64,000 bases of DNA from Pristiophorus japonicus. Its lineage: Eukaryota. This document shows positions 23,270 through 64,000 of the stretch, piece by piece. The notes beneath the pieces are model-generated. The model worked only from the letters and a program-made list of their open reading frames with translations. It did not search any database and was not told where the DNA came from. The DNA lies in assembly GCF_044704955.1 (NCBI RefSeq), contig NC_091998.1, positions 58,900,001-58,964,000 on the forward strand. The letters are read 5' to 3'. The stretch's first letter is position 1; each line of letters begins with the position of its first letter. A program made the translations under genes and the position numbers.

Positions 23270-23430
23270 TAATTTCGGGAATATCCACACGCTGAGGAAC
23301 TTCTAAAGACATTTCTGAAATAATGCACTACGCAATCAAAAAAATTCCATCCAGGGGAGACCCGCCCTGAGGGAGGAGCATGTGGAGGGCGCTGTGTATA
23401 AGACACGAGCTGAAGGCTGTTTATCAGCAC
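23270..23430 (+). promoter_or_regulatory. Proximal promoter of il1b copy 1
   Basis: TATAAGA at 23397-23403, ~120 nt before the ATG. Upstream motif matches: kB-like GGGAATATCC (23277-23286) and GGGGAGACCC (23354-23363), ETS/PU.1 core GAGGAA (23294-23299), C/EBP-like TTCTGAAAT and CTACGCAAT (23328-23336), and a GC box CCCGCCC. Motif matches only. Confidence 0.65.
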
Positions 23431-23521
23431 AGCTACACAGTAATCCTGACAATCTTGAGCACACCGCCAGATATAACCTCAAACAACTGAGAGCGTCAAA
23501 TCTACCGCGAAGACACGAGGC

Positions 23522-26500
23522 ATGAAGACTGAGATTGGACCCGTGACCATTCCAATGGTTGATAGTGAATCTCGAAGGTAAGATTTTGTTTAGTGTTTAA
23601 TCCCAAACTGAGCGATGCCAGTCGCTCTCTATCTCTGAATCCTGCCCATGTTTGCAGCAACTAAATGATGCTCGCTCTATCCGCAGAACCTTCAGTCACC
23701 GCCGCCGCAGGAATTCTCGCCTGACTTCTCCGGTCTCCTGCCCCCAGCTCAAGGTAAGAATCTTTCACTGGCATTGTATCAACCTGATATTGGTGTGTGG
23801 GGGGGGGGGGGGGACATGCATTTTGTTACAGTTACAGTAAGCTTGAGTTGGTAAATATTACAATGCTCTGAGCGAGCAGAATTCACAATGCAAATTGAAC
23901 CCTCTTTGGAAATATTTTCTAAGTGCAGAGATTAAATTCCCAGGCCCCACCCCACACTCCAGCCCACCAATCCGGGCTGCGAGAGTTTCCTCTGTCTCAG
24001 CCCTCACAGAACCAGAGACATTTACAGCACGGAGCGAGACCATTTGGCCCATCGAATCCGCGCCGGCCGACCAAGAGCAACCCAGCTTAATCCCACTTTC
24101 CAGCTCTCGGTCCGTAGCCCTGCAGGTTACGGCACTTCACGTGCACATCCAAGTATTTTTTAAATGTGGTGAGGGTTTCTGCCTCTACCACCCTTTCAGG
24201 CAGTGAATTTCAGACCCCCACTACCCTCTGGGTGAAGACATTTCCCCTCAAATCCCCTTTAAACCTGCTACCAGTCACTGTAAAGCTATGCACCCTGGTT
24301 ATTATCCCCTCTGCTAAGGAAACAGGTTCTTCCTATCCACTCTATCTAGGCCCCTCATAATTTTACACACCTCAATTAGGTCTCCCCTCAGCCTCCTCTG
24401 CTCCAAAGAAAACAGACCCAAACTATCCAATCTTCCCTCACAGCTAAAATTCTCCGTCATGTGCTCCAACTTGCCAGCCACAGGGTATCAGTGTGTGGTG
24501 CCTGCAGCGGTTGGGAGGTTCTGTTTCTGCACCAATTGCAGTAATTCCAGGCAATCCCCTGAGTGTATCCTGGGCGCAGCTTCTTGTCCATGGTGTTACA
24601 GAGACATCGCATTCCTTCATCTCAACTCCCACTAAACATGCCTGGGACCCTTGGCATTTCTGGGGGGGCTGGAGGCTGGGGAAAAAAAAGCACATCACCC
24701 GCCAACGAGACTGGACTCACCGAATCTAACTGTTTGCTCATTTTGCAGAGCCTATTTCAAGAGACCTTACCAAAAGTGATGGAGACGAGCACGGCCAATC
24801 ACCGAGCAGACGGAGAGAGCTACCAGCTAGAAATCACCGGGACATCCTCGTCCATAACCACGGCCGGCAATGCAGTACTCTCGCTGGAAAAGGCTGTCAT
24901 GTTGGTCCTGGCTGTTGAAAAATTCAAGAAGGGGTTGGGGCGGCCGTCGAGCAATGGCTGGGGACACAAGGGCACTTCCTTCAAGGGCAGCGAGCTGCTC
25001 GGGAGCTTCAATGCGCTGGTGGAAGGTAAGAAGCGTTTCCTTCCAGTGTTGTCATTGGTGCCATGGCCAACTGTGTGAGCAGTGTGGCACCCGGCATCAT
25101 GGCTGCTGGCTGCTGTGTCAGTGCTTCTGTTGCTGCTCCCTCATTGTTGCTGGCTCAATATAGTGGCATTGCCCACAGCAGCTGTGGCATTCCCATTGGC
25201 GTAAGGATTTGACAAGACAGCCTGGCACCCGGGTAACCCGGGCTGGCCAAGAACTGCAGCCTTGCCAGCGCTGCCCAGAGACATATTACACTTCCAGATT
25301 GATTTTTTTTCTGATCAATCTCCGTTAATTTGCTGCGGTGAATAACTGCTTTCGATTTGTGCCAACAGAAGCCATTACCTGCATCAGCTATGACGACACT
25401 GAACAGGCGAACAGCTCCTACAGGTTCATGCGGAGTGAGCGCACGCAGGTGAAGGACGAGCAAGACAAGTCTCTGATGCTGTCGGACAACCTCCAGCTCG
25501 TCGCCCTGTTCTTGCAGGAGCCGAAGGACGAAGGTGGGTCACCTCAGCCCTTGCTCTTTTCTGGAACACTTCAAACAAGGAAAAGTTGGCCAAAGTATTT
25601 CAATCTTCCTGTTCGGAAGAAGAATTCTCTCCCGGTCACTGTCGCTCTTCCTTGCCCCGCCTCTATTCTCTCCCCGCCTCTCCTGACTCCCTGCACAGAG
25701 GCTGACTCTTGGCTGGGATATATTTCTACAGGAGTCACTCTCCCCCCACCCAGTACCTCACCAACTTGGCCATTCTTACTGTGAGGCCAAAGTGTTGTCA
25801 GGCTATTCAGCCATGGGGGAGGCGCATCATAGCCCAGCCCGACTGATGTATATCCCCAGGATCACTAGATCAGGACCAGGAGCAGGGACCCTGGCCATTT
25901 CATCTGCTCCCTGGCGGAGTGTTGCTGAGGCCAATTGTAATGCACCAGTGCCTGCCTTGGTTAACTTGAACCTGACGACCATCCAGCCTGAATGGCTCAA
26001 TTCCATTCCAGATGGTGCATTTATCCAGTAATAACTGGGGAGCTGCACTTTTAGTAATCTTGGTCTCAATATATTCTGACGACAGTACTAACATGTTCCC
26101 TCTTTAACTTACAGTAACACTGGATGTGAGGTACTACAAGACCGCTGTGAGCACAGAGAATGATTTGCCTGTTGTTCTGGGAATCAACAGGCGGAATCTG
26201 TTCCTCTCTTGCACGGGATCACATGACAGACCCAGGATGCAGGTGGAGGTAAGGGATTGCACAGTTACCTGACAAATATCACGTCATTGCTACCTGGAGG
26301 CTCGGCCTCTTCTGCCAGCCTGCCTGTGTTCATTCTCTACAACTTACATGTGTCAGAGGATTCAGTCCATGTTTTGCAACCTTCCCTTCACTCTGGCTGT
26401 GATGCCCCATGTCCACAATCTGACCAATTTCAACACTGGTTCTGCAGCTTCAGGGAAACCCCCTGCCCATATCTTACAGTCCATCTCCCCTCCTCCTGAA

Positions 26501-27306
26501 GGTGCTGCCTCTCTCTGCGACACTGGTTCCATGGGTGCTGGCCACCCTCCACTCACTCGCCCATGGAGCCAATCCTCAGATAGTGTATCAGAAAGCTATT
26601 TAACCTGAGGGTGCAGCCCCATAGCCCAATCCTAGCCTGGCCTGACCTGATACCCAAACATGTACAATCTCCAGCAGGGATCGCTGCACAGTGATCAGGA
26701 GCTGGAACCCTGGCATTTTTCCCCCGCCCTATCCCAGGAATGCTCTGTCCTCTCTCCCCTTCCTGGCCAAAGTCAGCTGGCTTAGAATAGTCCCGGGATC
26801 AAGGGCAATCACCCTGTGCATTTGCAGACAGTCAGCTGACGCGGAGTCTGGGCGGAGCCCTAATATCAGGGTAGCAGCCCCGCCAGGCACAGGAGCTGAA
26901 TTCCCCAAGAAGGGAATGGGACGGGAAAGGGATGGGCGGCATTAGGTCTGCCGGCTCAGAACCTCCCACCAACATCAAGAAACCAGCCCCGTGCACACCA
27001 ACATATCCTGAAATAAAGACCCTTGCAGCTTTTTCAGCTGAAATATAAATGTATTTCAATGTGTTCCAACCGATGATGTTTCTATTTGCACAGAAATGGG
27101 ACAAGACTCTGCAGAATATCAGCAGTGCTACCGACCTGCTCCGCTTCGTGTTCTATAAGAAGGATTCGAGTTCTGGCGAGGACTTTGAGTTTGAATCGGC
27201 GATGTACCGGGGCTGGTACATCAGCACGTCCAGAAAGAGCAAACAGCCTGTGGACATGGACCGGAAGGAGCACCGCAAGAGAATCACAATCTTCACAGCG
27301 GAGTGA
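23522..27306 (+). CDS. il1b: Interleukin-1 beta-like precursor, copy 1; 6 coding exons join(23522..23577,23687..23753,24749..25025,25369..25533,26115..26248,27094..27306), 303 aa
   Basis: All introns are GT-AG with compatible phases (2,0,1,1,0); the total is 912 nt ending in TGA. The pro-domain has the motif LEKAVMLVLAVEKFKK. Beta-trefoil segments include RSERTQVKDEQDKSLMLSDNLQLVALFLQ, PVVLGINRRNLFLSC and LLRFVFYKKD. The IL-1 family signature region reads FESAMYRGWYISTS...PVDM. The exon 2 acceptor could alternatively be 23711, also in frame. Confidence 0.93.
24005..24455 (-). mobile_element. CR1 3' fragment in il1b intron 2 (also ~42243-42693 and ~60405-60855)
   Basis: Closely matches 3370-3800 (GTGGTGAGGGTT.CTGCCTCTACCACCCTTTCAGGCAGTGA...). 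Confidence 0.85.
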
Positions 27307-27680
27307 GACCGTCCCGAACTCTCCGCAGTTCACAACACAAACCAGGAGTAGTTGGTTTCGGGAGAGCGTGTGTATGTACTAAGTACAGAATTCGCAATCC
27401 ATTGAATTACAATCATTTTGGTCATATTGGACTGAAAAGATTGATGTTGGAATATGTTGGTGAAACACAGGTAGCAATATTTGTTACTGCTTGACTTGTA
27501 TATTATTTGCATTTAAACTTTAGTGAAACGAAGGTGTCGTATTTTTGGATCGTGAGGACTAATGATTGTATAAGTTATTCAATATTATTATTTATTATTT
27601 AAATTATTGATCCATTTATTGCTATACTGGAAGAGAAAGCTTCTTCCTTGGTTGATTAAATTTTGAGTTTTCTTTCAAAC
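27307..27680 (+). terminator. il1b copy 1 3'UTR with AU-rich elements and polyadenylation signal
   Basis: ATTTA at 27511, 27590, 27597 and 27614, including the nonamer TTATTTATT (27588-27596). ATTAAA at 27655-27660 is followed by a T-rich tract. Confidence 0.7.
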
Positions 27681-27886
27681 ACATTAGTTTCCTTTTTCAT
27701 TTTCACACATTTCCTTAAAAATGTTGTTTGGGGTAAAAAAAAATGAAGCACGCACCATTGCTGCAGTAGGAAAAGCTCTTCCATTCCCAACTGATTCTTT
27801 GCAATCTCCACAGTCTCGCGTTTGCTCACTTTTCTCACCCTCTGTTGGGCAGCTCCAGAATATTTGTTTTTACATTCTCTCCTGAA

Positions 27887-28296
27887 GAAAGAAAGACTTC
27901 CATTTCTATCGTCGCTTCCACCAGCTCAGGACGTCCCAAAGCCCTTCGCAGTCAATGAACCATTGTAATGTGGGAAACACAGCAGCCAAATTCCGCACAG
28001 CAAGCTCCAAAAACAGCAGTGCAGATAATGAGCAGATAATCTGATAGTTAGTGATGTTGATTGAGGGATAAATAATGGCCAGGACACCAGGAAAGCTCCC
28101 CCTGCTTTTCTTCAAATGGCACCGTGGGACCTTTTCTATGCACCTGAGAGGTGGGCCCTCACTTTAACCTCTCATTCAAAAGACGGCCCCTCCGGCAGTG
28201 CAGCACTGGGTGTCAGCCTGGATTGTATGCTGAAGTCTCCGGACTGGAGCTCCGGGACTGAGACGAGAGTGCTGCCACTGAGCCAAGGCTGACACT
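27887..28296 (-). mobile_element. DeuSINE-like SINE at the unit junction (also 46128-46537)
   Basis: Reverse complement of the SINE family at 20583. The head GTGTCAGCCTTGGCTCAGTGGCAGCACTC is on the minus strand and the tail is AAAGAAAGAC. Confidence 0.72.
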
Positions 28297-28834
28297 CGGC
28301 AGTATTGGGGGAGGTGCTGCATTCTTGGTCAGGTGCAGTTTCACAGGCGCTGACCATATTTCTCTATCTCAACTAAGTGACCATTCTTTGTGTATGTATA
28401 CCAACAGTGTGGGGGTTGTTTCAGCTAAAGGATAAAACCAGGCTCTAAATGGGTGAAACGCTAATAATAAATGGGTGACAATTTTGGTCCTAATTGCTGA
28501 TGGCCATAATTGGAACTTATGCCTGATTACCATAATTGGAGGCGCTAAACCAGAAACCGTCAGGTTTAGCACAAGTGCTGATTAGACTCAATTTTAGTGA
28601 AGCAGTATATGTGGGCTCCTCGCACCCAATTCCACGGAAGATGAGGCGTGCGCTGACTGGCACACAGTGACACGTTGCAGGATGGCTTGGACTGAGGGAG
28701 GGGGCACGCAGGTTTGTAAGAAATCTTTAAACCCAAAAAAATTGCAAGTTATAAAAGGGATAATAATTCTGCAAAGAGTAGTCTGCCAACTCAACAGATG
28801 AGGGCTCAACAACAACAACAAATTCTATTTATAT

Positions 28835-31800
28835 CATCATCATAGGCAGTCCCTCGGAATCGAGGCAGACTTGCTTCCACTCCTAAAGTGAGTCCTTTGG
28901 TGGCTGAACCATCGTACACGAGAGCCCCAGACCCTGTCACAGGGTGGGACAGACATTTGTCGGGGGAAGTGGGGGTGGGACTGATTTACCACACGCTCCT
29001 TCCGCTGCCTGCGCCTGACCACTTTTACACTCGTGGCGTTGAGATTCGAAGAGCTCAATGCCCTCCCGGATGCACTTTCTCCATCTCAGGCGGTCTTGGG
29101 CCAGGGACTCCCAGGTGTCAGTGGTGATATCGCACTTTACCAGGAAGGCTTTGAGGGTGTCCTTGTAACGTTTCCGCTGCCCAGCTTTGGCTCATTTGCC
29201 GTGAAGTAGCTCCGCATAGAGAAATTGCTTAGGGAGTCTCGTGTCTGGCATGCGAAATATGTGGCCTGCCCAGCGAAGCTGATCGAGTGTGGTCAGTGCT
29301 TCAATGCTGAGAATATTAGCCTGGGCAAGGACACTGATGTTGGTGCACCTGTCTTCCCAGGGGATTTGCAGGATCTTGCGGAGACATCGTTGGTGATATA
29401 TCTCCAGCAACTTAAGGTGTCTTCTGTACATCGTCCATGCCTCTGATCCATTCAGGAGGGTGGCTATTATGACAGCCCTGTAGACCATGAGCTTGGTGAT
29501 AGATTTGAGGGCCTGGTCTTCGAACACTCTTTTCCTCGGGCAGCCAAAGGCTGCACTGGCGCACTGGAGGCGATGTTGAATCTCCACTTCAATGTCTGCC
29601 TTTGTTGATAAAAGGCTCTCGAGGTATGGGAAGTGATCCACATTGTCGAGGGCCGCGCCATTAATCTTGATGACTGGGGGGGCAGTGCTGTGCGGCGAGG
29701 ACAGGCTGGTGGAGGACCTTTATCTTACGGATGTTAAGTGTAAGGCCCATGCTTTCATATGCCTCGGTGAATACATCGACTATATCCTGGAGTTCAGCCT
29801 CAGAACGTGCGCAGGCGCAGGCGTCGTCTGCGTACTGCAGCTCAACAACAGAGGTTGGGATTATCTTGGACCTGGCCTGGAGGCGGCGTAGGTTAAACAG
29901 CTTCGCACTGGTTCTGTAGATCCACTCCAGCGGGGAGCTTGTTGACTGTGAGGTTGAGCATGGCAATGAGGAAGATTGAGAAGAGGGTTGGAGCGATGAC
30001 ACAGCCCTGTTTGACTCTGGTCCGGACGTGGATTGAGTTTGTAATGGAACCAATGGTAAGGATCACGGCCTGCCTGTCGTCGTGGAGCAGGCGAAGGATG
30101 TTGACCAACTTTTGGGGGCATCTAAAATGGAGGAGAATGCTCCACATGCCCTCATGATTGACAATGTCAAAGCCTTTGTAAGGTTGAAAAAGGCCATGTA
30201 TAACGGCTGGCACTGCTCCCTGCATTTTTTCTGCAGCTGTCGCGCTGCAAAGATCATGTCTGTTGTGCCCCATAGAGGTCGAAATCCGCACTCTAATTCT
30301 GGGAGGAGCTCCTCGGCCACAGGGAGAAGTCGATTGAGGAGAACTCTAGCGACAACCTTCCCAGTGGCTGATAACAGGGAGATTCCCCTGTAGTTGCCGC
30401 AGTCGGACTTGACCTTTTTAAAGATGGTCACGATCGCTGCATCTCTGAGATCTCCCGGCACGCTCTCCTCCCTCCAAATGAGAGAGATGAAGTCATGTAT
30501 CCGCACCAACAGCGCCTCTCCACCATACCTTAAAGCTTCAGCAGCAATTCCATCTGCACCCGTAGACATGTTATTTTTGTTCTGTTTTATGGCTTTGCCT
30601 ACCTCATGCAGCACTGGCATTTCACTGAGGTGGTGTCGGGTCGCATTCTGCGGGATGGAGTTGAGGACAATCGAGTCAAAGGCAGAGTCTCGATTGAGGA
30701 GATCTTCAAAGTGCTCCTTCCAGCGGTCCCTGACAGCCCCGGTGTCCTTGATGAGTGTTTCCCCGTTCTTGGCCAGGAGTGGGGTGTGGCCTTGGGAGTT
30801 TGGACCGTAGGCGGCTTTGGACCATAGGCGGCGTTGACTGCAATGAAGAATCCTCGCATATCGTGGCTGTCGGCCAGTTGTTGTATCTCCTGTGCTTTCT
30901 CCATCCACCACCTGTTCTTTAGGTCCCGGGTTTTTTGTTGGACCTCAGCCTTGAGCCGTCTGTAATGTTGTTTTGCAACTCCCGAGTTGGAGTGTTACTT
31001 GAGGCTCAGAAATGCTCTCTGCTTATGATCTATTAGTTCTTGGATCTCCTGATCATTTTTATCAAACCAGTCCTGGTGCTTTCTGGTTGAGTAACCAAGT
31101 GTCTCTTCACAGGCACTGGTTATGGAGACCTGGAGGGAAGACCAAGCACTGTGCGCATTCAGCATCTCAGGGTATTCAAGGCACGCCAGATTAGCTGTGA
31201 GGCACTGGCTGTATACGGCTCTCTTAGCTGGGTTTTTAAGTGTCCTGGTATTAACTTTTTTGGCACTGCTTCTGCTGTCCCCTCTGCTTTGGGGTTATGT
31301 TTATATCGATGATGGATCGGATTAGGCGATGGCCGTCGAGCAGTCGTCAACTTCTGTCATGGCGCGGGTTATGCGCATAACCTTGCGATCCCTGGCTCGG
31401 ATGATGACATCGTCAAGCAGGTGCCAGTGTTTGAAGCAAGGGTGTTGCCACGATGCTCTGTATTGTCCCTCAGGTGGAGCAGGCTGTTGGTGATGAGGAG
31501 TTTATGTTCTAGACATTTTGTCAGGAGTAGGGTACCGCTGGAGTTGGCTTTCGCTACCCCCTCTCGGCCAATCACACCTCCCCAGAGGGCTGAATCTTTG
31601 TCGACCCTGGCATTAAAGTCATCTAGAAGGATCAATTTCTCGCCCATTGGGACGTGGGACAGGGATGTCTCGAGGTTGGAATTAAAAACTCTCTTTAGCC
31701 TCATCCGTTGCATCGAGTGTTGGGGCGTACACACTGATGACAGTGGCGCATTGGTTCTGGGATCGGGTATGGCGAAGAGTCATGAAGTGTTCATTAACCC

Positions 31801-33420
31801 CGCAGGGGAAATCTTTGAGGCGGTTGACCAGTTGATTTTTGACGGCAAAGCCAACCCCATGAAGGCGGTGTTCTTCCTCTGGTTTTCCTTTCCAGAAAAT
31901 GGTGTAACCTCCACCATGTTCCTTGATCTGGCCTTTCCCTGCCCGCCTGGTCTCACTTGGGGCGGCGATGTCAATGTCAAATCCTCTAAGTTCCCGGGCA
32001 TCTATGGCCGTGCGGCGTTCCAGCCTGTTGCTGTTGTAATTGTCCATGAGGTTGCTGACGTTCCAGGTCTCAAACTTCATAGTTACGAAGTGGAAAATGC
32101 CTGTGCGTGAGTTCTTTTAACGTGGTGTGGCCGCTGCACACCGGCAACCACTCGGGCTTAGCTGAGCAGGGTCTTGGTTCGGCGGAAAGGGGGTTTAAGA
32201 CGACTGGAGACTAGGCACTGCTGTATAAGCCTAATTGCCTACGGCGAGGTGTTGGTCGCAAGCTCAGCGCCGAGTAGTGCCATTGATGGTAGATGGCCCG
32301 AGGCTTGGTTGGGGGATAGGTGTTAGGAAGGTCAGCAGTCCACTGGGGTTCCGAGGGATGTTTTGGAAAGTTTCTTCCAAGGTTAAAAATTTCCCCAAAG
32401 GTTTCCAAGTTGTTTTAAATGTTTGAATTTAGAAGTATTTCCAGATTATTTTTTTTTAAAGTTACACAGGTTGATTGAAGGTTTAATAAATAGATTAATA
32501 GTTCGTTAAAAGTTGATAAAAAAAACTCTAAACTGTAAATCAAGTTGTTTAAAAGTTAATGTTCACTGCTAGCGACCGAGGGCAGATACAGCCCGTCGGT
32601 GTGCCGGGCTGGCTGATTTAGGTGACCCCGAGTGCGAGGCTGGGTCAGGCCGGCTGGCCGAAGGGACCCAGAGTGCGTCGTTGGGCTTGGCTGGCTGGCC
32701 GAAGGGACCCGGAGTGTGTGGTTGGGCGGGGCCGGCTGGCCGAAGGGACGCGGAGTGTGTCGTTGGGCCGGGCCGGCTGGCCGAAGGGACCGGGAGTGTG
32801 TCGTTGGGCCGGGCCGGCTGGCCGAAGGGACCCGGAGTGTGTCGTTGGGCGGGGCCGGCTGGCCGAAGGGACTTGGAATGCTGAATGTACTCCCATGATG
32901 TACAAAGACCTGGATGGACCACACCTGGAGCACTGCGGGGAAGTAGAGGCCCAGTCATCTCCAGAGGGGGCCCGAACGCCTGGACACCGCTGGGGAGAGG
33001 TCTCAACACTGCTGGGAGGCCAAACACCTTGGCCCGCTGCAATCCCGGGCCGAATGGCCTCCCCGCTCCCCGATTAGTACACATCCACAGGGGTCTCAGC
33101 ACTGAACCAAGCGGCTCCAAGCTCAGATCCCAGGAACTGCAAGAGGGGTATAAATGAAAAAGCTGACAAGGCCCTAGCACAGACGGTGGAGTGAAGGGCT
33201 CCCGAGAGTGGATCTATGGTCTAACACTCTTCCGCCAGTGGACCCATGCTGACCCGAGTCTAACTCTTGACGGCAACCCCTCCGGCCTAGCGACCCCTCC
33301 ACTCACTGCACCCTCCATCCTCTCTGCAGCCTGGTACCGCAGGCCTATACATTCGACAGCCATTCCTGAGATATCCGCAGCCTCTCCTGAGCTATCCGCA
33401 CCCACCAGCCAATCTCCTAG
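28835..33420 (-). mobile_element. Full-length RTE-clade LINE (~4.6 kb), frameshifted
   Basis: APE motifs (WNV, SETR, GVGFAV, VYAPT, DFNARV) and RT motifs (GADGI, NYRGISLL, KQGCVIAP, YADD). It has a (ATG)n tail and TSD CTATTTATAT at 28825-28834 and 33421-33430. Confidence 0.93.
32647..32872. repeat. 41-bp GC-rich VNTR in the RTE 5' region, 6 cores
   Basis: GGCTGGCCGAAGGGAC recurs every 41 bp, six times. Confidence 0.92.
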
Positions 33421-34665
33421 CTATTTATATAGCGCCTTTAACATAGTGAAACGTCCCAAGGTGCTTCACAGGAGAATTATGAGATTTTTAACAATTTGAC
33501 ACTGGGCCACATATGTATAAATTAGCTCAGGTAACCAAAAGCTTGGACAAAGAGGTAGGTTTTAAGGAGCATCTTGAAGGAGGAAAGAGAGGCGGAGAAG
33601 TTTAGCCAGGGAGTTTCAGAGCTTAAGGTCTAAGCAATAGAAGACTCGGCCACCAATAGTTGAGCGATTATGATCAGGGATGCTCAAGAGGTCAGAATTA
33701 GAGGAGCACAGACATCTCAGGGGTTGTGGGGCTGGAGGAGATTACAGAGATAAGAGAGTAGATAGGCTATAAAAGGATTTGAAAATAAAGTTGAACATTT
33801 TCAAATCCAGGCATTGCTTAACTGGAAGCCAATGTAGATCAGCAAGTACAGGGTTGATGGGCGAGTGGGACTTGGTGCGAGTTAGAATGAGTTTTGGATC
33901 ACTCTATTTTACCGTAGGGGAGAATGTGGGAGGCCAGCCAGTAGTGGGTTGCAATAGTCAAGTCTAGAGGTAACAAAGGCATGGATGAGGGCTTCAGCAG
34001 TGGAGGAGCTGAGGTAGAGGAAGAGATGAGTGATGTTACGGAAGTGGAAATAGGCGGTCTTCGTTATGCTGCAGATACGTGGTCGAGAGCTCATTTCAGG
34101 GTCAAAGATGACACCAAGGTTGTGAACAGTCTGGTTCAGCCTCAGACAGAAGTTGGGGAGAGGCATGGAGTCAATGGCTGAGGAACGGAGTTTGTGCCTG
34201 GGACTGAAAACAATGGCTTCAGTCTTCCCAATATTCAATTGAAGAAAGTTCTGCTCATCCAGAACTGGATCTTGGACAAGCAGTCTAACATTTTGGAGAC
34301 TGTGGAGGGGTCGAGAGAAGTGTTGGTGAGGTAGAGCTGGGTGTCATCAGCGTACTTGTGGAAACTGACGCTGTGTTTTCGGATGATGTCGCCAAGAGGC
34401 AGCATGTCGATGAGAAATAGGAGGGGGCCAAGGATAGATCCTTGGGGGACACCAGAGGTAACGATGTGGGGGAGGGAAGAGAAGCCATGGCAGGTGATTC
34501 TCTGGCTACGATTAGATAGATTAGAACGGAACCAAACGAGTGCAGTTCCACCCAGCTGGACGGTGGTGGAGAGGCATTGGAGAAGATGGAATGGTCAACC
34601 GTGTCAAAGGCTGCAGACAGGTCAAGAAGGATGAGGAGGGATAGTTTGCCTTTGTCACAGTCACA
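33421..34665 (-). mobile_element. L2-clade LINE 3' fragment (duplicate at 51592-52835)
   Basis: Minus-strand GVPQGSILGP, YADDTQLY and IHAFVTSRLDYCN. Its (GTT)n tail is stranded at 28807-28824 on the other side of the RTE insertion. Confidence 0.85.
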
Positions 34666-51591: not shown

Positions 51592-54500
51592 CTATTTATA
51601 TAGCGCCTTTAACATAGTGAAACGTCCCAAGGTGCTTCACAGGAGAATTATGAGATTTTTAACAATTTGACACTGGGCCACATATGTATAAATTAGCTCA
51701 GGTAACCAAAAGCTTGGACAAAGAGGTAGGTTTTAAGGAGCATCTTGAAGGAGGAAAGAGAGGCGGAGAGGTTTAGCCAGGGAGTTTCAGAGCTTGAGGT
51801 CTAAGCAATAGAAGACTCGGCCACAAATAGTTGAGTGATTATGATCAGGGATGCTCAAGAGGTCAGAATTAGAGGAGCACAGACATCTCAGGGGTTGTGG
51901 GGCTGGAGGAGATTACAGAGATCGAGAGTAGATAGGCTATAAAAGGATTTGAAAATAAGGATGAACATTTTCAAATCCAGGCATTGCTTAACTGGAAGCC
52001 AATGTAGATCAGCAAGTACAGGGTTGATGGGCGAGTGGGACTTGGTGCGAGTTAGAATGAGTTTTGGATCACTCTATTTTACCATAGGGGAGAATGTGGG
52101 AGGCCAGCCAGTAGTGGGTTGCAATAGTCAAGTCTAGAGGTAACAAAGGCATGGATGAGGGCTTCAGCAGTGGAGGAGCTGAGGTAGAGGCAGAGATGAG
52201 TGATGTTACAGAAGTGGAAATAGGCGGTCTTCGTTATGCTGCAGATACGTGGTCGAGAGCTCATTTCAGGGTCAAAGATGACACCAAGGTTGTGAACAGT
52301 CTGGTTCAGCCTCAGACAGAAGTTGGGGAGAGGCATGGAGTCAGTGGCTAAGCAACGGAGTTTGTGCCGGGGACTGAAAACAATGGCTTCAGTCTTCCCA
52401 ATATTCAATTGAAGAAAGTTCTGCTCATCCGGAACTGGATCTTGGACAAGCAGTCTAACATTTTGGAGACTGTGGAGGGGTCGAGAGAAGTGTTGGTGAG
52501 GTAGAGCTGGGTGTCATCAGCCTACTTGTGGAAACTGACGCTGTGTTTTCGGATGATGTCGCCAAGAGGCAGCATGTCGATGAGAAATAGGAGGGGGCCA
52601 AGGATAGATCCTTGGGGGACACCAGAGGTAACGATGTGGGGGAGGGAAGAGAAGCCATGGCAGGTGATTCTCTGGCTACGATTAGATGGATTAGAACGGA
52701 ACCAAACGAGTGCAGTCCCACCCAGCTGGACGGTGGTGGAGAGGCTTTGGAGAAGATGGAATGGTCAACCGTGTTAAAGGCTGCAAACAGGTCAAGAAGG
52801 ATGAGGAGGGATAGTTTGCCTTTGTCACAGTCACAGTCTTGCTGGTATTATTGAGTTATCTTAGCCCAGCCTTTTTAATGACTGATAGTTTCTGGGAAAT
52901 AAAATGTTTGATTTTATTTTTATCTATTGAAAACGCCCAAGTTCCCGCTCACTCCTCCCTTCCAGCCCTGACCTCATTCCTGCTACTTCAGGCGAGAGAC
53001 AAATTTGAAAATTTAAATGAAGCCTCCCTCCTCACCATCAGAATATTTTCCAATTACGGTTGTTGGAGTGTTAGTCTCTTTTTCGGGAGACTTAACAGCA
53101 AACTGCTTGCCAGTGAAATCTCGGGGTTGATTTTAACTCGGGCGGGATGAGGGGAGCCCGGAGCGGGCGGTGCACCTATACATCATGAAGGAAGTGAGGC
53201 CTGACTGATTTTAACCCCTCCCACACACTGTTCCTGCGCAGCGGGGTGGGGTTAACATCGACCCCCCCCCCCCCCCCCCACATGTTTTGTGCCATTCATT
53301 TCAACTTTAGCTTTGCCCGATGGCTCAGTTGATAAAGGCAACATGAAGCTGAGCTGTACAGACCAGAGTGGTCTGAGGATTGAGCCCCAGTTTGTGCTGG
53401 GTTAGTTGATCCCACTAGGGGTAGCAGCAGGGATGTTATGATTGGCCTAACGGCCTCTGGATTAGGGAGGGTTCCCATTCCCATTCACTGTCCAGCAATC
53501 CTTGCTGGGAAGGGTGGGTGTGTTGATGTTTGAGGAGGACAGGATCCGACTCGCCTGCTTACTGTCTGGGATCACACATGAGACCACTGGGGCAAGATAT
53601 CTGAGGGCAGATACTGTACCTCAGCAAGAGTCGATGCCGTCAAGAGGGAAGGAAAGGGGAGAATTGATTTAAAAATGTAAACCCCACAAAGTTGTTGGGG
53701 ATAATTTTCTGGCAATGTGTTCCTAGCTCGAGACTCACCAACAGGGGATCAAATATTGGACGTTTGTGCGCGAACTTCATGATTTACCGACTATTTACAT
53801 TAATGATTTGTTAATCAAGCACAGTGCGTCCCATGATTTTTGATGTAACCATTTTACTTATTTTCATAATTTGCAGACTTTTCATCATTTCATGTTGTGG
53901 TAAACCTCTCGTGTTACACTTTGCGGAAACTAGTGGCAAAGGAATTAAAACTTTCCATTAAGAAAGCAGCATGAGTCATTGTTTTATGGGAGATAGGGCT
54001 CAGGTAGGTGAAACAACGGCAGCAGTTAGGCCATGAACTCTTTCACCGCCATTGGTCCCAATTTTAACTCGGGCAGGAATTGGGTGCTTGAGGCAAATGG
54101 CAAACCCATTTGAACTCATAGCCTTACCTACGAGCAGGGTTAAAATCGCCCTGACGTGTATCCGGGGTGGGGCAAGCCTAGATATTATCTGTGTGTGTAA
54201 TAAAAACAGAAAATGCTGCAAATATCCAGCAGCTCTTCCGGTACCTGTTCTGAGAAAGGCTAGGTTCATGCGTCCATTGTTCAGCAGAACATGGTCGCCT
54301 CGCGTAGCATTAACTTGGCTTTTCTCATCATCGATTGCGATCGACCTGCTGTATATTTCAGGCATTATTGTTTCCAGTATTCCTTCTGTTTCTCATTTTA
54401 GAGATGGGTGCCACACAATTCCTCAGGAATTTACTCAGTAGGCGACTGTTGGAACCCTCATAGAATAGGGCTAGACCTGGTTACATAGGATTAGCGGGAG

Positions 54501-57365
54501 GCCATTCAGCCCCTCGAGTCTGCTCCGCCATTCACTTCAATCATGGCTGATCTGCACCTCACCTCCATTTCCCTTTCCTCCATATCCCTTGATTCCCATA
54601 CCTAACAACAATCTCCCGATCTCAGCCTTGAAAGCTTCAATTAACATCCACAGCCTTTTGGGGGAAGAGAGGTCCAGATTTCTACTATTCTTTGAAAAAG
54701 TGCTTCCCGATTTCCCTCTAATTTAGTTATAATGTTGAGGTTGTGCCTCCTTGTTCAGGACTCGCCTGCCAGAGGAAATAGTTATCTACCCTATCAACCC
54801 CTTTAATAATAAACACCTCGATCAGATCACTTCCTCTATACTCAAGGGAATACAAGCCAGAGGTATGAAACTTGTCCTCAGAATGGAACCCTCTCAGCCT
54901 CGGGATCATTCTGGTGAATCTGCGTGGGGTCTTTGCCATTCTGGCCATTTGAATTCCCGTCACATGGGCGGTCGGCTGCCAAAGATACGACCAAAATGGC
55001 AACCTGACCAACAAACTCCAGGGGTGTCACCAATGGCAAGCCCAACAGGAGCAGGTCCGGCTCTAACACATTCGCACCTAGTGCGAGAAAATGAAACACC
55101 TTTAACATCAGGCACTCCCACGATAGGTACGGAACAGGTTAGATACAGAGTAATGCTCCCTCTACACTGTCCCATCAAATGCTCCCAGGACAGGTACAGC
55201 ACGGGGTTAGATACAGAGTAATGCTCCCTCTACACTGTCCCATCTAACACTCTCAGGGCAGGTACAGCACGGGGTTAGGTACAGAGTAAAGCTCCCTCTA
55301 CACTGTCCCATTAAACACTCCCAGGGCAGGTGCAGCACGAGATTAGATACAGAGTAAAGCTCCCTCTACACTGATCTGTCAATGTACGTCCGACCAAACT
55401 CTGAGAACATCGCTCACTGCCCAATAGAACATTGTTCCATTCCCCATACCTCTCGTCCTGTCGCCCATCTGAGTGAGACTCAGTAAGAAGTTAGGCAATA
55501 GCAGCCCATTAGAAACTGGGTTGAGGCCTCATGTAACAAATAGTTTCACTCCATCAGTTTTAGGTGCATTTGAAGGGGAATTTGTTTTTATTCCTATCAT
55601 CCAGTCTGTACAGAGTAAATGATCTGGTGCTCAGCACAATTCAGGAGCAGGCAGCAGACATTTCCCCACAGCAAGATTTTCTATCCATTCATTTTAATGA
55701 ACAGAAAATCATTTGATGTACATGTGCAATTTCACAATTATGTGCTCTCGTCCTGTGACTAGAACTTAGAAGCGGAATTCTTACCCTGACAACTGACTTC
55801 CTTCAGTGTGACTCCAAATGGTGGAAGGTCAGTCTCTATCCCACTGCACCACCAATGGGCCATCCTCCAATCAGATCAGCTGGCAGACTATGTACTCCTT
55901 AAATTAAATGCCTCAAGGTATACACGGTGAAACACAGAAACTTCGGCGTGCACTCCAGTGCTGAGGGAGCGCTGCATTGTTGGAGGTGACGTCTTTCGGA
56001 TGAGATGTCAAAAAGTCTACTCTCTCAGGTTGACGTAACAGGCCCTATGGCACTATTTCTAAAAAGAGCAGGGGATTTAACCCCAGTGTCCTGGCCAATA
56101 TTTATCCCTCAATCAACATCACTAAAACAAATTATCTGGTCATTATCACATTGCTGTTTGTGGAAGTTTGCTGTGTGCAAAAATTGGCCGCATTTCCAAC
56201 ATTACAACAGTGACTACACTTCAAAAAGTAAAGCGCATTGGTACCTTCGTGGTCGTGAAAGGCGCTATAGAAATGCAAGTCTTTCTTTATAAAAGGGTAG
56301 GAGTGTCTGGGAGTACTTTCACACCATGGGTCTGTGTACATTTACACAGATTGAGGATGAAATTGCACATGGGCGGTGTCTCACCGGTCTCCCGTTAAAC
56401 CCTGGGCCCGATGGTCAGTTCCACTGACTTCATCAGAATTGAAATAAAAACAGTGAATGCTGGAAATCTCAGCGGGTCAGTAGAATTGAATATCAGATGC
56501 AACGGTCGGCAAATGCGATTCTGTCTGTTTTACGTCCCCCCACCACACACCCCATGTGCATCCCCCATCCCATAATAACCTCATGTGGTCCAACTGATCA
56601 CACGTACTGTGGACGAGCGGGACGAGCGGGACGAGCTGGGGAAGTTTATTGTGAGTGCTGTCACTGAGCTCAGTGAACGGACATGCTTCCTGGAAACTTT
56701 CTCTCAGGGCAAGTGTGATCTGTATTGTTCACTCGTCTGTAACCTCTGCAGAAAGGTGCTGGCCGCTGCAATCCGGGGCGGGGAGGCGATACCGAGCTGT
56801 GTACTATTGGGTTACCCCGAAACATTGAATGGGTGAGGACACATTGCACTTTTAAATGTGGCATTCCAGCTGTTTGAAAGACCGGATACATTTCCGGCTT
56901 TTGCAACCCTGAAACTGCCTCAGAGAATGTCGCCTGACACAATAAACTTGGCTCAATAGACCAGCCACTCCTTCTCTTAGCTTGGATATTTGTTTTTTTA
57001 TGTCAGCTCAGTGGGCAGCACAGTCGCCTCTGAGTTGTGGGTTCAAGCCCCACTCCAGAAACTTGAGCACATAAATCTAGGCTGACATTGCAGTGCAGTG
57101 CTGAGGGAGCTCTGCACTGTCGGAGGTGCCACCTTTTGGATGAGACATTAAACCGAGAGCCCTCTGCTCTCTCAGGTGGATGTAACAGATCCCATGGCAT
57201 TATTTGGAAGAACAGTAGAGGAGTTATTCCCAGTGTTCTGGCCAATATTTATCACTCTGTTTGCTGTTTGTGGGAGCTTGCTGTGCACAAATTGGCTGCT
57301 GCCTTTCCCACATTACAACAGTCACTACACTCCAAATGTACTTTGTTGGCTGTAAAACACTTTGA

Positions 57366-59205
57366 GACATAGAAACATAGAAAATAGGTGCAGGAGTAGG
57401 CTATTCGGCTCTCGAGCCTGCACCGCCATTCAATAAGATCATGGTTGAACATTCCTTCAGTACCCCTTTCCTGCTTTCTCTCCATACCCCTTGATCCCCT
57501 TAACCGTAAGGACCATATCTAACTCCCTCTTGAATATATCCAATGAACTGACATCAACAACTCTCTGCGGCAGGGAATTCCACAGGTCAACGCTCTATCA
57601 GTGAAGAAGCTTCTCCTCATCTCAGTCCTAAATGGCCTATCCCTTATCCTAAGACTATGTCCCCTGGTTCTGGACTTCCCCAACATCAAGAACGTTCTTC
57701 CTGCATCTATCAGAATCTTATATGTTTCTATGAGATCCTCTCTCATCCTTCTAAACACCAGTGAATAAAGGCCCAGTTGATCCAGTCTCTCCTCATATGA
57801 CAGCCCAGCCATCCCTGGAATCAGTCTGGTGAACCTTCGCTGCACTCCCTCAATAGCAAGAACATCCTTCCTCAGACTAGGAGACCAAAACTGAACACAA
57901 TATTCCAGGTGAGGCCTCACTAAGGCCCTGTACAACTGCAGTAAGACCTCCCTGCTCCTATATTCAAATCCCCTAGCTATGAAGGCTAACATACCATTTG
58001 CCTTCTTTACCGCCTGCTGTAACTGCGTGCCCACTTTCAGTGACTGATGAACCGTGACACCCAGGTCTCGTTGCACCTCCCCTTTTTCTAGTCTGCCGCC
58101 ATTCAAATAATATTCTGCCTTTGTGTTTTTGCCCCCAAAATGGATAACCCCACATTTATCCACATTATACTGCATCTGCCATGTATTTGCCCACTCACCT
58201 AATCTGTCCAAGTCACCCTGCATACTCTTAGTGTCCTCCTTACAGCTCACACTGCCACCAAGTTTAGTGTCATCTGCAAACTTGGAGATATTACACTCTA
58301 TTCCTTCATCCAAATCGTGAATGTATATTGTAAAGAGCTGGGATCCCAGCACTGAGCCGTGCGGCACCCAACTAGTAACTGCCTGCCATTCTGAAAAGGA
58401 CCCGTTTATCCCGACTCTCTGCTTCCTGTCTGCCAACCAGTTCTCTATCCACGTCAGTACATTACCCCCAATACCACGCGCTTTGATTTTGTACACCAAT
58501 CTCTTATGCAGGACCTTGTCAAAAGCCTTTTGAAAGTCCAAATACACCACATCCACTGGTTATCCCTTGTCCACTCTACTAGTTACATCCTCAAAAAATT
58601 CCAGAAGATTCGTCAAGCATGATTTCCCTTTCATAAATTCATGCTGACTTGGTCCGATCCTGTCACTGCTTTCCAAATGGGCTACTATTTGATCCTTAAT
58701 GATTGATTCCAACATTTTCCCCACTACTGATGTCAGGCTACCCAGTCTATAATTACCCGCTTTCTCTCTCCCTCCTTTCTTAAAAAGTGGCGTCACATTA
58801 GCTACCCTCCCATCCATAGGAACTAATCCAGAGTCGATAGATTGTTGGAAAATGATCACCATTGCATCCACTATTTCTAGGGCCACTTCCTTAAGTACTC
58901 TGGGATGCAGACTATCAGGACCCGAGATTTATCGGCCTTTAATCCCATCAATTTCCCTAACACAATTTCCCGCCTAATAAGGATATCTTTCAGTTCCTCA
59001 TTCTCACTAGACCCACTGTCCGCTAGTACATTCGGAAGGTTATTTGTATCTTCCTTTATGAAGACAGAACCGATGTATTGGTTCAATTGGTCTGGCATTT
59101 CTTTGTTCCCCATTATAAATTCACCTGAATCCGACTGCAAGGGACCTACATTTGTCTTTACTAATCTTTTTCTCCTCACATATTTATAGAAGCTTTTGAA
59201 GTCAG
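57366..59205 (-). mobile_element. 5'-truncated CR1 upstream of il1b copy 3
   Basis: Duplicate carrying the same 18-bp deletion as copy 2. Confidence 0.92.
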
Positions 59206-59666
59206 ATCCTCCCCCCTCCACCCCCCCCACACCCCGCCTCCCTCCACCTTATGGCCCACCAATCCTACCTTGGGCAATACACTGGCATCCCCAGCACAGA
59301 CTGATTCTTTGATTTGCAGCCTCTGGTACTGAGACTGTCTGAATTGAGAAGCACAGCGAAATACTGCAGCTTGCTGGAAATCTGAAAACGCAAAGTGCGC
59401 CTGCTCGCCAGGTCAAGCAGCATGAGGGGGGAAACCCTGCCCAGGCTGCAGCAGGGGTATTGGAGGGACGGAAAATTACAGCTACAGTGTGTGATGTGGC
59501 TGAGGTTCTGGGCCTCAGTATCATTACACTCAGAGGGTAAAATGCTGCCTGGATACCCTCAACACAGAACAAGTGTGGCCTTTACTTGTTAAACCTTATG
59601 GGGCTTAGCAGGCAGTGAAATGCTTTTGCTTTTCAAACTTTGAATGGGTACCAGTGGCGAGAGGGT

Positions 59667-59827
59667 TAATTTCGGGAATATCCACACGCTGAGGAACTTC
59701 TAAAGACATTTCTGAAATAATGCACTCCGCAATCCAAAAAATTCCATCCAGGGGAGACCCGCCCTGAGGGAGGAGCATGTGGAGGGCGCTGTGTATAAGA
59801 CACGAGCTGAAGGCTGTTTATCAGCAC
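59667..59827 (+). promoter_or_regulatory. Proximal promoter of il1b copy 3
   Basis: TATAAGA at 59794-59800 with the same motifs, except two substitutions in or next to the C/EBP-like site (59727, 59735). Confidence 0.65.
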
Positions 59828-59918
59828 AGCTACACAGTAATCCTGACAATCTTGAGCACACCGCCAGATATAACCTCAAACAACTGAGAGCGTCAAATCT
59901 ACCGCGAAGACACGAGGC

Positions 59919-62900
59919 ATGAAGACTGAGATTGGACCCGTGACCATTCCAATGGTTGATAGTGAATCTCGAAGGTAAGATTTTGTTTAGTGTTTAATCC
60001 CAAACTGAGCGATGCCAGTCGCTCTCTATCTCTGAATCCTGCCCATGTTTGCAGCAACTAAATGATGCTCGCTCTATCCGCAGAACCTTCAGTCACCGCC
60101 GCCGCAGGAATTCTCGCCTGACTTCTCCGGTCTCCTGCCCCCAGCTCAAGGTAAGAATCTTTCACTGGCATTGTATCAACCTGATATTGGTGTGTGGGGG
60201 GGGGGGGGGGGGGACATGCATTTTGTTACAGTTACAGTAAGCTTGAGTTGGTAAATATTACAATGCTCTGAGCGAGCAGAATTCACAATGCAAATTGAAC
60301 CCTCTTTGGAAATATTTTCTCAGTGCAGAGATTAAATTCCCAGGCCCCACCCCACACTCCAGCCCACCAATCCGGGCTGCGAGAGTTTCCTCTGTCTCAG
60401 CCCTCACAGAACCAGAGACATTTACAGCACGGAGCGAGACCATTTGGCCCATCGAATCCGCGCCGGCCGACCAAGAGCAACCCAGCTTAATCCCACTTTC
60501 CAGCTCTCGGTCCGTAGCCCTGCAGGTTACGGCACTTCACGTGCACATCCAAGTATTTTTTAAATGTGGTGAGGGTTTCTGCCTCTACCACCCTTTCAGG
60601 CAGTGAATTTCAGACCCCCACTACCCTCTGGGTGAAGACATTTCCCCTCAAATCCCCTTTAAACCTGCTACCAGTCACTGTAAAGCTATGCACCCTGGTT
60701 ATTATCCCCTCTGCTAAGGAAACAGGTTCTTCCTATCCACTCTATCTAGGCCCCTCATAATTTTACACACCTCAATTAGGTCTCCCCTCAGCCTCCTCTG
60801 CTCCAAAGAAAACAGACCCAACCTATCCAATCTTCCCTCACAGCTAAAATTCTCCGTCATGTGCTCCAACTTGCCAGCCACAGGGTATCAGTGTGTGGTG
60901 CCTGCAGCGGTTGGGAGGTCCTGTTTCTGCACCAATTGCAGTAATTCCAGGCAATCCCCTGAGTGTATCCTGGGCGCAGCTTCTTGTCCATGGTGTTACA
61001 GAGACATCGCATTCCTTCATCTCAACTCCCACTAAACATGCCTGGGACCCTTGGCATTTCTGGGGGGGCTGGAGGCTGGGGCAAAAAAAGCACATCACCC
61101 GCCAACGAGACTGGACTCACTGAATCTAACTGTTTGCTCATTTTGCAGAGCCTATTTCAAGAGACCTTACCAAAAGTGATGGAGACGAGCACGGCCAATC
61201 ACCGAGCAGACGGAGAGAGCTATCAGCTAGAAATCACCGGGACATCCTCGTCCATAACCACGGCCGGCAATGCAGTACTCTCGCTGGAAAAGGCTGTCAT
61301 GTTGGTCCTGGCTGTTGAAAAATTCAAGAAGGGGTTGGGGCGGCCGTCGAGCAATGGCTGGGGACACAAGGGCACTTCCTTCAAGGGCAGCGAGCTGCTC
61401 GGGAGCTTCAATGCGCTGGTGGAAGGTAAGAAGCGTTTCCTTCCAGTGTTGTCATTGGTGCCATGGCCAACTGTGTGAGCAGTGTGGCACCCGGCATCAT
61501 GGCTGCTGGCTGCTGTGTCAGTGCTTCTGTTGCTGCTCCCTCATTGTTGCTGGCTCAATATAGTGGCATTGCCCACAGCAGCTGTGGCATTCCCATTGGC
61601 GTAAGGATTTGACAAGACAGCCTGGCACCCGGGTAACCCGGGCTGGCCAAGAACTGCAGCCTTGCCAGCGCTGCCCAGAGACATATTACACTTCCAGATT
61701 GATTTTTTTTCTGATCAATCTCCGTTAATTTGCTGCGGTGAATAACTGCTTTCGATTTGTGCCAACAGAAGCCATTACCTGCATCAGCTATGACGACACT
61801 GAACAGGCGAACAGCTCCTACAGGTTCATGCGGAGTGAGCGCACGCAGGTGAAGGACGAGCAAGACAAGTCTCTGATGCTGTCGGACAACCTCCAGCTCG
61901 TCGCCCTGTTCTTGCAGGAGCCGAAGGACGAAGGTGGGTCACCTCAGCCCTTGCTCTTTTCTGGAACACTTCAAACAAGGAAAAGTTGGCCAAAGTATTT
62001 CAATCTTCCTGTTCGGAAGAAGAATTCTCTCCCGGTCACTGTCGCTCTTCCTTGCCCCGCCTCTATTCTCTCCCCGCCTCTCCTGACTCCCTGCACAGAG
62101 GCTGACTCTTGGCTGGGATATATTTCTACAGGAGTCACTCTCCCCCCCCCCCCCTCCCCAGTACCTCACCAACTTGGCCATTCTTACTGTGAGGCCAAAG
62201 TGTTGTCAGGCTATTCAGCCATGGGGGAGGCGCATCATAGCCCAGCCCGACTGATGTATATCCCCAGGATCACTAGATCAGGACCAGGAGCAGGGACCCT
62301 GGCCATTTCATCTGCTCCCTGGCGGAGTGTTGCTGAGGCCAATTGTAATGCACCAGTGCCTGCCTTGGTTAACTTGAACCTGACGACCATCCAGCCTGAA
62401 TGGCTCAATTCCATTCCAGATGGTGCATTTATCCAGTAATAACTGGGGAGCTGCACTTTTAGTAATCTTGGTCTCAATATATTCTGACGACAGTACTAAC
62501 ATGTTCCCTCTTTAACTTACAGTAACACTGGATGTGAGGTACTACAAGACCGCTGTGAGCACAGAGAATGATTTGCCTGTTGTTCTGGGAATCAACAGGC
62601 GGAATCTGTTCCTCTCTTGCACGGGATCACATGACAGACCCAGGATGCAGGTGGAGGTAAGGGATTGCACAGTTACCTGACAAATATCACGTCATTGCTA
62701 CCTGGAGGCTCGGCCTCTTCTGCCAGCCTGCCTGTGTTCATTCTCTACAACTTACATGTGTCAGAGGATTCAGTCCATGTTTTGCAACCTTCCCTTCACT
62801 CTGGCTGTGATGCCCCATGTCCACAATCTGACCAATTTCAACACTGGTTCTGCAGCTTCAGGGAAACCCCCTGCCCATATCTTACAGTCCATCTCCCCTC

Positions 62901-63714
62901 CTCCTGAAGGTGCTGCCTCTCTCTGCGACACTGGTTCCATGGGTGCTGGCCACCCTCCACTCACTCGCCCATGGAGCCAATCCTCAGATAGTGTATCAGA
63001 AAGCTATTTAACCTGAGGGTGCAGCCCCATAGCCCAATCCTAGCCTGGCCTGACCTGATACCCAAACATGTACAATCTCCAGCAGGGATCGCTGCACAGT
63101 GATCAGGAGCTGGAACCCTGGCATTTTTCCCCCGCCCTATCCCAGGAATGCTCTGTCCTCTCTCCCCTTCCTGGCCAAGGTCAGCTGGCTTAGAATAGTC
63201 CCGGGATCAAGGGCAATCACCCTGTGCATTTGCAGACAGTCAGCTGACGCGGAGTCTGGGCGGAGCCCTAATATCAGGGTAGCAGCCCCGCCAGGCACAG
63301 GAGCTGAATTCCCCAAGAAGGGAATGGGACGGGAAAGGGATGGGCGGCATTAGGTCTGCCGACTCAGAACCTCCCACCAACATCAAGAAACCAGCCCCGT
63401 GCACGCCAACATATCCTGAAATAAAGACCCCTGCAGCTTTTTCAGCTGAAATATAAATGTATTTCAATGTGTTCCAACCGATGATGTTTCTATTTGCACA
63501 GAAATGGGACAAGACTCTGCAGAATATCAGCAGTGCTACCGACCTGCTCCGCTTCGTGTTCTATAAGAAGGATTCGAGTTCTGGCGAGGACTTTGAGTTT
63601 GAATCGGCGATGTACCGGGGCTGGTACATCAGCACGTCCAGAAAGAGCAAACAGCCTGTGGACATGGACCGGAAGGAGCACCGCAAGAGAATCACAATCT
63701 TCACAGCGGAGTGA
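59919..63714 (+). CDS. il1b: Interleukin-1 beta-like precursor, copy 3; join(59919..59974,60084..60150,61149..61425,61769..61933,62523..62656,63502..63714), 303 aa
   Basis: Same exon sizes and splice sites. The protein reads identical to copy 1 (I5) and carries the synonymous TAT shared with copy 2. Confidence 0.93.
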
Positions 63715-64000
63715 GACCATCCCGAGCTCTCCGCAGTTCACAACACAAACCAGGAGTAGTTGGTTTCGGGAGAGCGTGTGTATGTACTAAGTACAGAATT
63801 CGCAATCCATTGAATTACAATCATTTTGGTCATATTGGACTGAAAAGATTGATGTTGGAATATGTTGGTGAAACACAGGTAGCAATATTTGTTACTGCTT
63901 GACTTGTATATTATTTGCATTTAAACTTTAGTGAAACGAAGGTGTCGTATTTTTGGATCGTGAGGACTAATGATTGTATAAGTTATTCAATATTATTATT
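63715..64000 (+). other. il1b copy 3 3'UTR (truncated by window end)
   Basis: Matches the other UTRs up to the start of the TTATTTATT cluster, where the window ends. Confidence 0.7.

Follow-up and report, generated by a model that had tools for sequence, protein, structure and literature searches.

A tandem array of near-identical interleukin-1β genes with a diverged outer edge in the Japanese sawshark: probably an old duplication kept alike by recombination

When neighbouring genes encode almost the same protein, did they duplicate recently, or are they old and have they been kept alike? This question is raised by a 64,000-nucleotide stretch of the Japanese sawshark (Pristiophorus japonicus) genome (assembly GCF_044704955.1, contig NC_091998.1, positions 58,900,001 to 58,964,000 of the forward strand), in which interleukin-1β (IL-1β) genes follow one another in tandem. 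The whole stretch is referred to as the window, and coordinates are given in its own numbering. Protein identity alone cannot tell "recent duplication" from "old and homogenised"; a preserved edge of the repeated segment can. As discussed below, we consider it likely that the tandem array is real, comprises three or more functional-looking IL-1β genes, goes back to an old duplication, has evolved in concert, and may act as a co-induced locus of higher dose.

Exon modelling in the window gave three intact, head-to-tail IL-1β open reading frames of 912 nt each (303 amino acids plus stop), in six coding exons of 56, 67, 277, 165, 134, and 213 nt and with GT-AG at all 15 introns. The ATGs lie at 23,522, 41,757, and 59,919, a spacing of 18,235 and 18,162 bp. 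All three genes are on the plus strand: copy 1 at 23,397–27,660 (coding exons 23,522–23,577, 23,687–23,753, 24,749–25,025, 25,369–25,533, 26,115–26,248, and 27,094–27,306), copy 2 at 41,632–45,901 (41,757–41,812, 41,922–41,988, 42,987–43,263, 43,607–43,771, 44,356–44,489, and 45,335–45,547), and copy 3 at 59,794–64,000 (59,919–59,974, 60,084–60,150, 61,149–61,425, 61,769–61,933, 62,523–62,656, and 63,502–63,714). Frames and splice sites are intact and no disabling change is present in any of the three. The coding sequences differ only at codon 5, where copy 2 has Val and the two others have Ile (I5V), and at a silent Tyr66 site that sets copy 1 apart from copies 2 and 3; copies 1 and 3 encode the identical protein. 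A TATA-like box lies ~125 nt 5′ of every ATG (at 23,397 in copy 1). The 3′ untranslated regions (UTRs) of copies 1 and 2 carry four ATTTA motifs and two overlapping AU-rich nonamers (~27,588–27,618 in copy 1), with an ATTAAA signal 349 nt past the stop (27,655 in copy 1). Copy 3 has 286 nt of 3′ UTR inside the window, and the rest lies beyond its end. An earlier note on this DNA had described three complete six-exon genes ~18.2 kb apart with intact splice sites, 303-residue proteins distinguished only by I5V in copy 2, and complete AU-rich UTRs in copies 1 and 2 with the window ending inside that of copy 3. Each of these points is borne out; of its "TATA promoter" the box stands, while "promoter", like the transcript ends, is read from sequence motifs only.

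The coding intron phases (2, 0, 1, 1, 0) are those of mammalian IL1B, whose last three exons of 165, 131, and 213 nt also agree with the 165, 134, and 213 nt of the sawshark gene. The type I IL-1β organisation comprises seven exons, the first of them non-coding (PMC4929537; here and below, citations refer to the excerpts of each paper that were consulted). The 125 nt between TATA-like box and ATG hold no convincing intron, and six coding exons were modelled. Upstream of copy 3 there are two private changes, at 59,727 and 59,735 (corresponding to 23,330 and 23,338 in copy 1), one of them inside what we take to be a C/EBP-like motif; nearby motifs, presumably NF-kB-like and PU.1-like, are the same in all three copies. 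Exon 2 (23,687–23,753 in copy 1) encodes a part of the pro-domain with a run of four arginines (residues 24–27), where most other sharks are less basic. The run resembles the nuclear-localisation stretch of mammalian pro-IL-1alpha. A tblastn search with all 18 chondrichthyan homologues placed none of its 256 matches outside the three genes, and no fourth or decayed IL-1 exon was found in the window. Rfam gave no match in the 64 kb.

Shark origin and IL-1β identity, both proposed in the earlier note, are supported by the protein match, the Pfam domain, and the ranking of PDB sequences. Over all 303 residues, the translation of copy 2 is identical to a database protein of Pristiophorus japonicus named "interleukin-1 beta-like" (P0001), which independently supports the exon model, and exon 6 alone matched the same 303-residue protein at 100%. 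Automated annotation already contains at least one of the array's genes. The C-terminal beta-trefoil domain matches IL1 (PF00340, E 4e-21, 75 bits against a cut-off of 25), as did two of five exons searched singly. Among 40 PDB sequence matches the top 24 are all IL-1β (best 6.9e-20), followed at ten orders of magnitude by IL-1RA (5.5e-9) and by IL-36a (2e-8), and the protein is closer to IL-1β than to IL-1RA, IL-36, IL-37, or IL-38. An N-terminal pro-domain of ~150 residues precedes the region that matches mature IL-1β; the Pfam IL-1 propeptide model did not match the protein. In a chondrichthyan-only tree of 18 rows, which omits an incomplete Rhincodon sequence and in which P0001 and copy 1 stand for the identical copies 2 and 3, the sawshark protein falls among 17 named chondrichthyan IL-1β proteins. 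Batoid and galeomorph clades are recovered, Heptranchias is the nearest other species by path, and the sawshark protein lies on an unresolved basal fork. A profile search meant to supply outgroups from bony vertebrates or from non-beta IL-1 brought back these 17 chondrichthyan proteins and no others. Among the 15–17 matches of each protein search there was no second, diverged Pristiophorus IL-1β cluster (<90% identity), and no neighbouring gene usable for synteny was recognised in the window, whose positions 1–10,300 are mostly fragments of long interspersed nuclear elements (LINEs). One shark IL-1 was not cut by human caspase-1, and the authors of that work argue against the name beta for the IL-1 of anamniotes (PMC9382457). 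Because of this argument, "IL-1β" here means the elasmobranch IL-1 gene and implies no processing route.

How old, then, is the array? Self-BLAST gave three head-to-tail blocks of 11.6–16.8 kb at 98.3–99.1% identity, so the array is not due to chance. The unit junctions, at 28,247 and 46,488, match those of the earlier note (~28.26 and ~46.50 kb); its start for the feature, 23,270, overlooked the outer edge of unit 1, as the near-identical block begins at 16,038 and homology reaches left to ~10,300. On the plus strand, the units occupy 10,300–28,246 (unit 1, outermost left), 28,247–46,487 (unit 2), and 46,488–64,000 (unit 3, which runs out of the window partway through the IL-1β 3′ UTR). When LINE insertions are subtracted, unit 1 measures 13,657 bp vs ~13,647 bp for unit 2. 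The left end of unit 1 forms an old edge in several parts. Its outermost part (10,300–10,862, plus strand) matches 28,247–28,806 and 46,488–47,047 and nothing else in the window, with a divergence of 10.5–10.8% (Kimura two-parameter, K2P) from units 2 and 3. The next part (10,886–11,747, minus strand) belongs to an L2-like LINE fragment and is 13.7% (K2P) from 33,426–34,279. There unit 1 is interrupted by a CR1-type LINE, and at 16,038 it resumes 11 bp past the point in unit 2 where 11,747 had ended. Right of the CR1 element the edge continues (16,038–17,224, plus strand) at ~8%. Independent dispersed repeats as the source of this similarity were rejected within the window, because the outermost and innermost edge parts match only their counterparts and because order and spacing are kept. 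Every unit also holds a four-copy 68-bp tandem repeat (18,689–18,956, 36,935–37,202, and 55,106–55,373).

Divergence between unit 1 and units 2 and 3 falls in three steps from this edge toward the gene. The first separates the parts left and right of the CR1 element (154 of 1,352 vs 86 of 1,138 sites, p 0.001). The second, at ~17.2 kb, is sharp (57 of 774 vs 12 of 1,006 sites, p 1e-11), ending the ~8% stretch (16,038–17,200) and leading to ~1.2%. The third reaches 25 of 9,360 sites (p 1e-4), or 0.3% of unit-1-specific changes. What follows is a homogenised core (17,225–28,246, plus strand) that includes a CR1 fragment common to all units (20,946–22,802 in unit 1, minus strand) and differs by 0.3–0.6% between copies; unit 1 stands 0.57% from the others in the upstream core and 0.3–0.5% in the gene. 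Between units 2 and 3 the divergence is 0.1–1.8% throughout. With an edge at 8–14%, the cores resemble one another much more closely than copies from so old a duplication should. Absolute ages were tried with the epaulette shark mutation rate of 7e-10 per generation (PMC10587355) and gave 57–98 million generations for the edge and 2–4 million for the core. They were dropped because the edge age multiplied by a shark generation time is implausibly old, and only the ratio was used, by which the edge would exceed the last homogenisation of the core in age by a factor of ~14 to 45. The core is, moreover, a mosaic. Over 10.4 kb it has 66 variable sites, at which the odd copy is 1, 2, and 3 in 37, 18, and 11 cases, respectively. 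In a tract covering the promoter, exons 1–2, and part of intron 2 (22,796–24,415, plus strand), one of the 16 sites sets copy 1 apart, compared with 25 of 36 sites to the left of the tract and 11 of 14 to its right (36 of 50 elsewhere in the core). A scan-corrected permutation gave p 0.0003 for the 66 sites, and 0.005 and 0.008 for sets of 59 and 44 sites from which homopolymer-adjacent sites, doublets, and the left shoulder had been dropped.

The LINEs mark the units independently of base changes. The near full-length, disabled CR1-type element of unit 1 (11,748–16,037, plus strand; GDSL-esterase ORF1, endonuclease, and reverse transcriptase by Pfam) has no equivalent in the other units and splits the L2-like fragment that runs unbroken in units 2 and 3. 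Compared with two related copies it has private changes at 23 of 962 columns (2.4%), less than half the edge divergence and therefore consistent with insertion after the duplication. Conversely, a disabled RTE-like LINE of 4.6 kb is present in units 2 and 3 only. In unit 2 it lies at 28,835–33,420 (minus strand), with a Pfam match to reverse transcriptase and a 10-bp target-site duplication, and has no counterpart in unit 1; the same insertion in unit 3 (47,076–51,591, minus strand) is 0.76% different and has two fewer units of a 41-bp repeat. This GC-rich repeat, near the RTE-like 5′ end, has 5.7 copies in unit 2 (32,641–32,872) vs 3.7 in unit 3 (50,888–51,039) and tells the two apart. The clade names L2 and RTE are our presumption, as is the label SINE (short interspersed nuclear element) for a repeat that crosses the unit 1/2 junction (27,888–28,297, no strand assigned; 71% to a copy at 19,520–19,871) and likewise lies at ~46,129–46,538. 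The left edge of unit 1 keeps only its last ~50 bp.

Some features of the repeats stand apart from this comparison. CR1 copies at 14,192–16,036 and 20,946–22,802 are 90% identical and inverted, ~4.9 kb apart, and flank the 17.2-kb divergence step. The L2-like fragment differs by 1.6–1.8% between units 2 and 3 (33,426–34,668 vs 51,597–52,838), vs 0.1–0.2% in the flanking unique edge, with the differences split evenly over both units. Intron 2 of each copy (24,004–24,455 in copy 1) holds a CR1-type 3′ fragment, ~80–82% identical to 3,358–3,807 and 9,073–9,406.

Which history would produce a diverged edge beside a near-identical core? Most likely, the copies have been kept alike by recombination after an old tandem duplication. 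We propose that a ~13.65-kb segment with one IL-1β gene was duplicated head-to-tail long ago, possibly through recombination between SINE copies at the segment ends. The left ends of both copies then diverged by the 8–14% seen today and took up their different LINE insertions. Repeated unequal crossover and gene conversion could subsequently have overwritten the inner 11 kb, including the gene, while sparing the outermost edge, and could have amplified the 18.2-kb unit that contains the junction, so that a third copy, or more, arose. In theory, overwriting from the inside by unequal crossover or conversion leaves the outermost edge at its original divergence, and the sawshark edge appears to fit this expectation. 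The collinear old edge, the same position of the L2-like fragment, the equal unit length without the two LINEs, the stepwise divergence, and the mosaic tract argue for this concerted evolution, as do the RTE-like target-site duplication and the junction common to units 2 and 3. With its own promoter and AU-rich UTR, each unit might be co-induced with the others, so that the array would work as one locus of higher dose, yielding a shark pro-IL-1β of the ordinary kind. This last step is the weakest in the proposal, and selection for IL-1β dose its weakest part, since homogenisation alone keeps genes intact. The earlier note had called the array "very recent or actively homogenised". Homogenisation is upheld; "very recent" finds no support for the founding duplication, given its 8–14% edge and different LINEs, and the step to a third copy may have been comparatively recent. 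Nor is there support for its picture of a "snapshot of how IL-1 clusters are born", because the copies are kept from diverging; what the window shows is probably several copies maintained at one locus rather than the birth of a gene family.

Could assembly have created the array? The core differences comprise 43 transitions and 23 transversions, 9 of these 43 transitions fall at CpG, which makes up 5% of the bases (p 2.6e-4), and the copies also differ by a 15-bp indel and by 82 bp of repeat number (two 41-bp units). These differences look biological, like mutations. That all copies are two haplotypes of one locus is contradicted by three distinct sequences and by the old, LINE-marked unit edge; because of this edge two real loci are near certain, and a third is likely. 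The third copy might instead reflect a jump of the assembler between haplotypes through the near-identical cores, which we judge quite improbable. Both the junction and the RTE-like LINE are common to units 2 and 3, which differ there at 57 of 7,137 sites (0.8%), a value to be compared with a diversity of 0.2% in the epaulette shark (PMC10587355). A single jump inside the core, however, should make unit 2 increasingly like unit 1 toward its right end, yet copy 1 is the odd one at 11 of the 14 last variable sites (24,422–27,318). This confines any such jump to the last ~0.9 kb. Identical runs in the core reach 0.9–1.2 kb at most, a length that long reads span, and the protein cluster P0001 has four distinct sequences where the window encodes two. 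A different source of the units would be hybrid formation from an old pair of paralogues, A and B, with a diverged IL-1β paralogue B to the right of the window. The geometry of unequal exchange leaves an old edge at both ends, and two of the four members of cluster P0001 are unaccounted for, but alleles, isoforms, or additional near-identical genes could account for these, and the searches described above gave no separate Pristiophorus cluster below 90% identity; we regard this origin as unlikely.

If a single-copy gene had simply been triplicated in recent times, as in a cluster being born, a core identity of 99.4–99.7% and proteins that differ by one residue would be accounted for. Such an event cannot give a collinear edge at 8–14% with unit-specific, decayed LINEs, or the stepwise divergence, and we hold it to be very improbable. 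Harder to set aside is a real array that is selectively neutral, its copy number drifting by recombination without a dosage role and with some copies weak or silent. It has the duplication, edge divergence, and homogenisation in common with the explanation proposed above and differs in co-induction and dose alone. Frames stay intact by homogenisation alone, copy 3 has its two private promoter changes, and three TLR2 genes are 99–100% identical in related sharks (bioRxiv 10.64898/2026.03.23.713620). Yet at least two units persisted through 8–14% divergence, even though unequal crossover also yields single-copy products, and none of the three copies is disabled. Neutrality is in our view a serious possibility, if not the one we would choose. 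The old, concertedly evolving, co-induced array that we favour also has to bear several points against it. Coding sites have changed less than intron sites (2 of 912 vs 18 of 2,873), in the direction that constraint would give, but the difference is not significant (p 0.19). The runs test on the core sites is modest (p 0.024) and the longest-run test on the same sites negative (p 0.62), and for three copies one old unequal crossover followed by a later expansion and one conversion would fit about as well as continual homogenisation. The 0.1–1.8% between units 2 and 3 is within reach of allelic variation, and the array is known from one sequence, with its right-hand end outside the window.

Are such arrays more widespread? 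Cluster P0001 (≥90% identity) is one of several multi-member "IL-1 beta-like" clusters, which hold 8 sequences in Cetorhinus (P0016), 6 in Hypanus (P0003), 5 in Chiloscyllium (P0011), 4 in Mustelus (P0017) as in Pristiophorus, and 2 in Mobula. Plain "IL-1 beta" clusters have a single member in six of nine cases, and two "like" clusters are also single. Homogenised IL-1β arrays might thus be recurrent and overlooked in elasmobranchs, kept for dose, variable in copy number, and collapsed in older assemblies; we find this doubtful, as cluster members may be isoforms or come from related species, and those of the Pristis (4) and S. canicula (3) clusters are labelled isoforms. IL-1β is a potent, tightly controlled cytokine whose known duplicates have diverged, and the sawshark locus would represent the other outcome, genes held identical by recombination. 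The locus also provides a natural setting in which cytokine gene dosage can be tested. In practical terms, il1b quantitative PCR or RNA-seq in sharks may sum several genes.

How does the array compare with known systems? IL-1β of Heptranchias, Pristis, Scyliorhinus, Heterodontus, and other elasmobranchs can be aligned with the sawshark protein, mostly at 62–70% identity, and that of orectolobiform sharks and Callorhinchus at 48–51%. The other elasmobranchs have one 90% cluster per species, whereas the sawshark has at least three near-identical tandem genes. Channel catfish reportedly carry tandem, highly similar IL-1β copies, which, if right, would be the closest precedent. According to a review, most anamniotes have one IL1 gene, and trout and carp have two (PMC9382457). 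Teleosts resemble the sawshark in that a fish may have several IL-1β genes, but their type I and type II genes differ in exon number and synteny, unlike the sawshark copies (PMC4929537). In the pig, IL1B and IL1B2 likewise form a tandem IL-1β duplication on one chromosome; these two have diverged in sequence, receptor interaction, and expression, which is conceptus-specific, while the sawshark copies are homogenised (PMC5777074). The mammalian IL-1 cluster also arose from IL-1β duplication and now comprises nine diverged ligands, a fate opposite to that of the sawshark array (PMC5861070). No report of a shark IL-1β array was found in a topical literature search that was thin on subscription journals, where much fish immunology appears, and copy numbers for shark IL-1 were absent from the excerpts consulted of PMC12108812, PMC9020223, PMC6795676, and PMC3511578. 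Mechanisms of this kind are familiar; what appears to be unreported is their operation at IL-1β, with a datable fossil edge. In squaliform sharks, near-identical tandem genes exist for TLR2 (three, 99–100%) and TLR9 (four, >94%), and the TLR9 copies have been read as recent duplications without evidence from their flanks (bioRxiv 10.64898/2026.03.23.713620), whereas the sawshark edge separates recent from homogenised. Shark globins form species-specific clusters and clades, for which turnover or gene conversion is named as the cause (PMC13023373). The same edge test can be applied to these near-identical TLR and globin arrays, which have been read as recent or left open.

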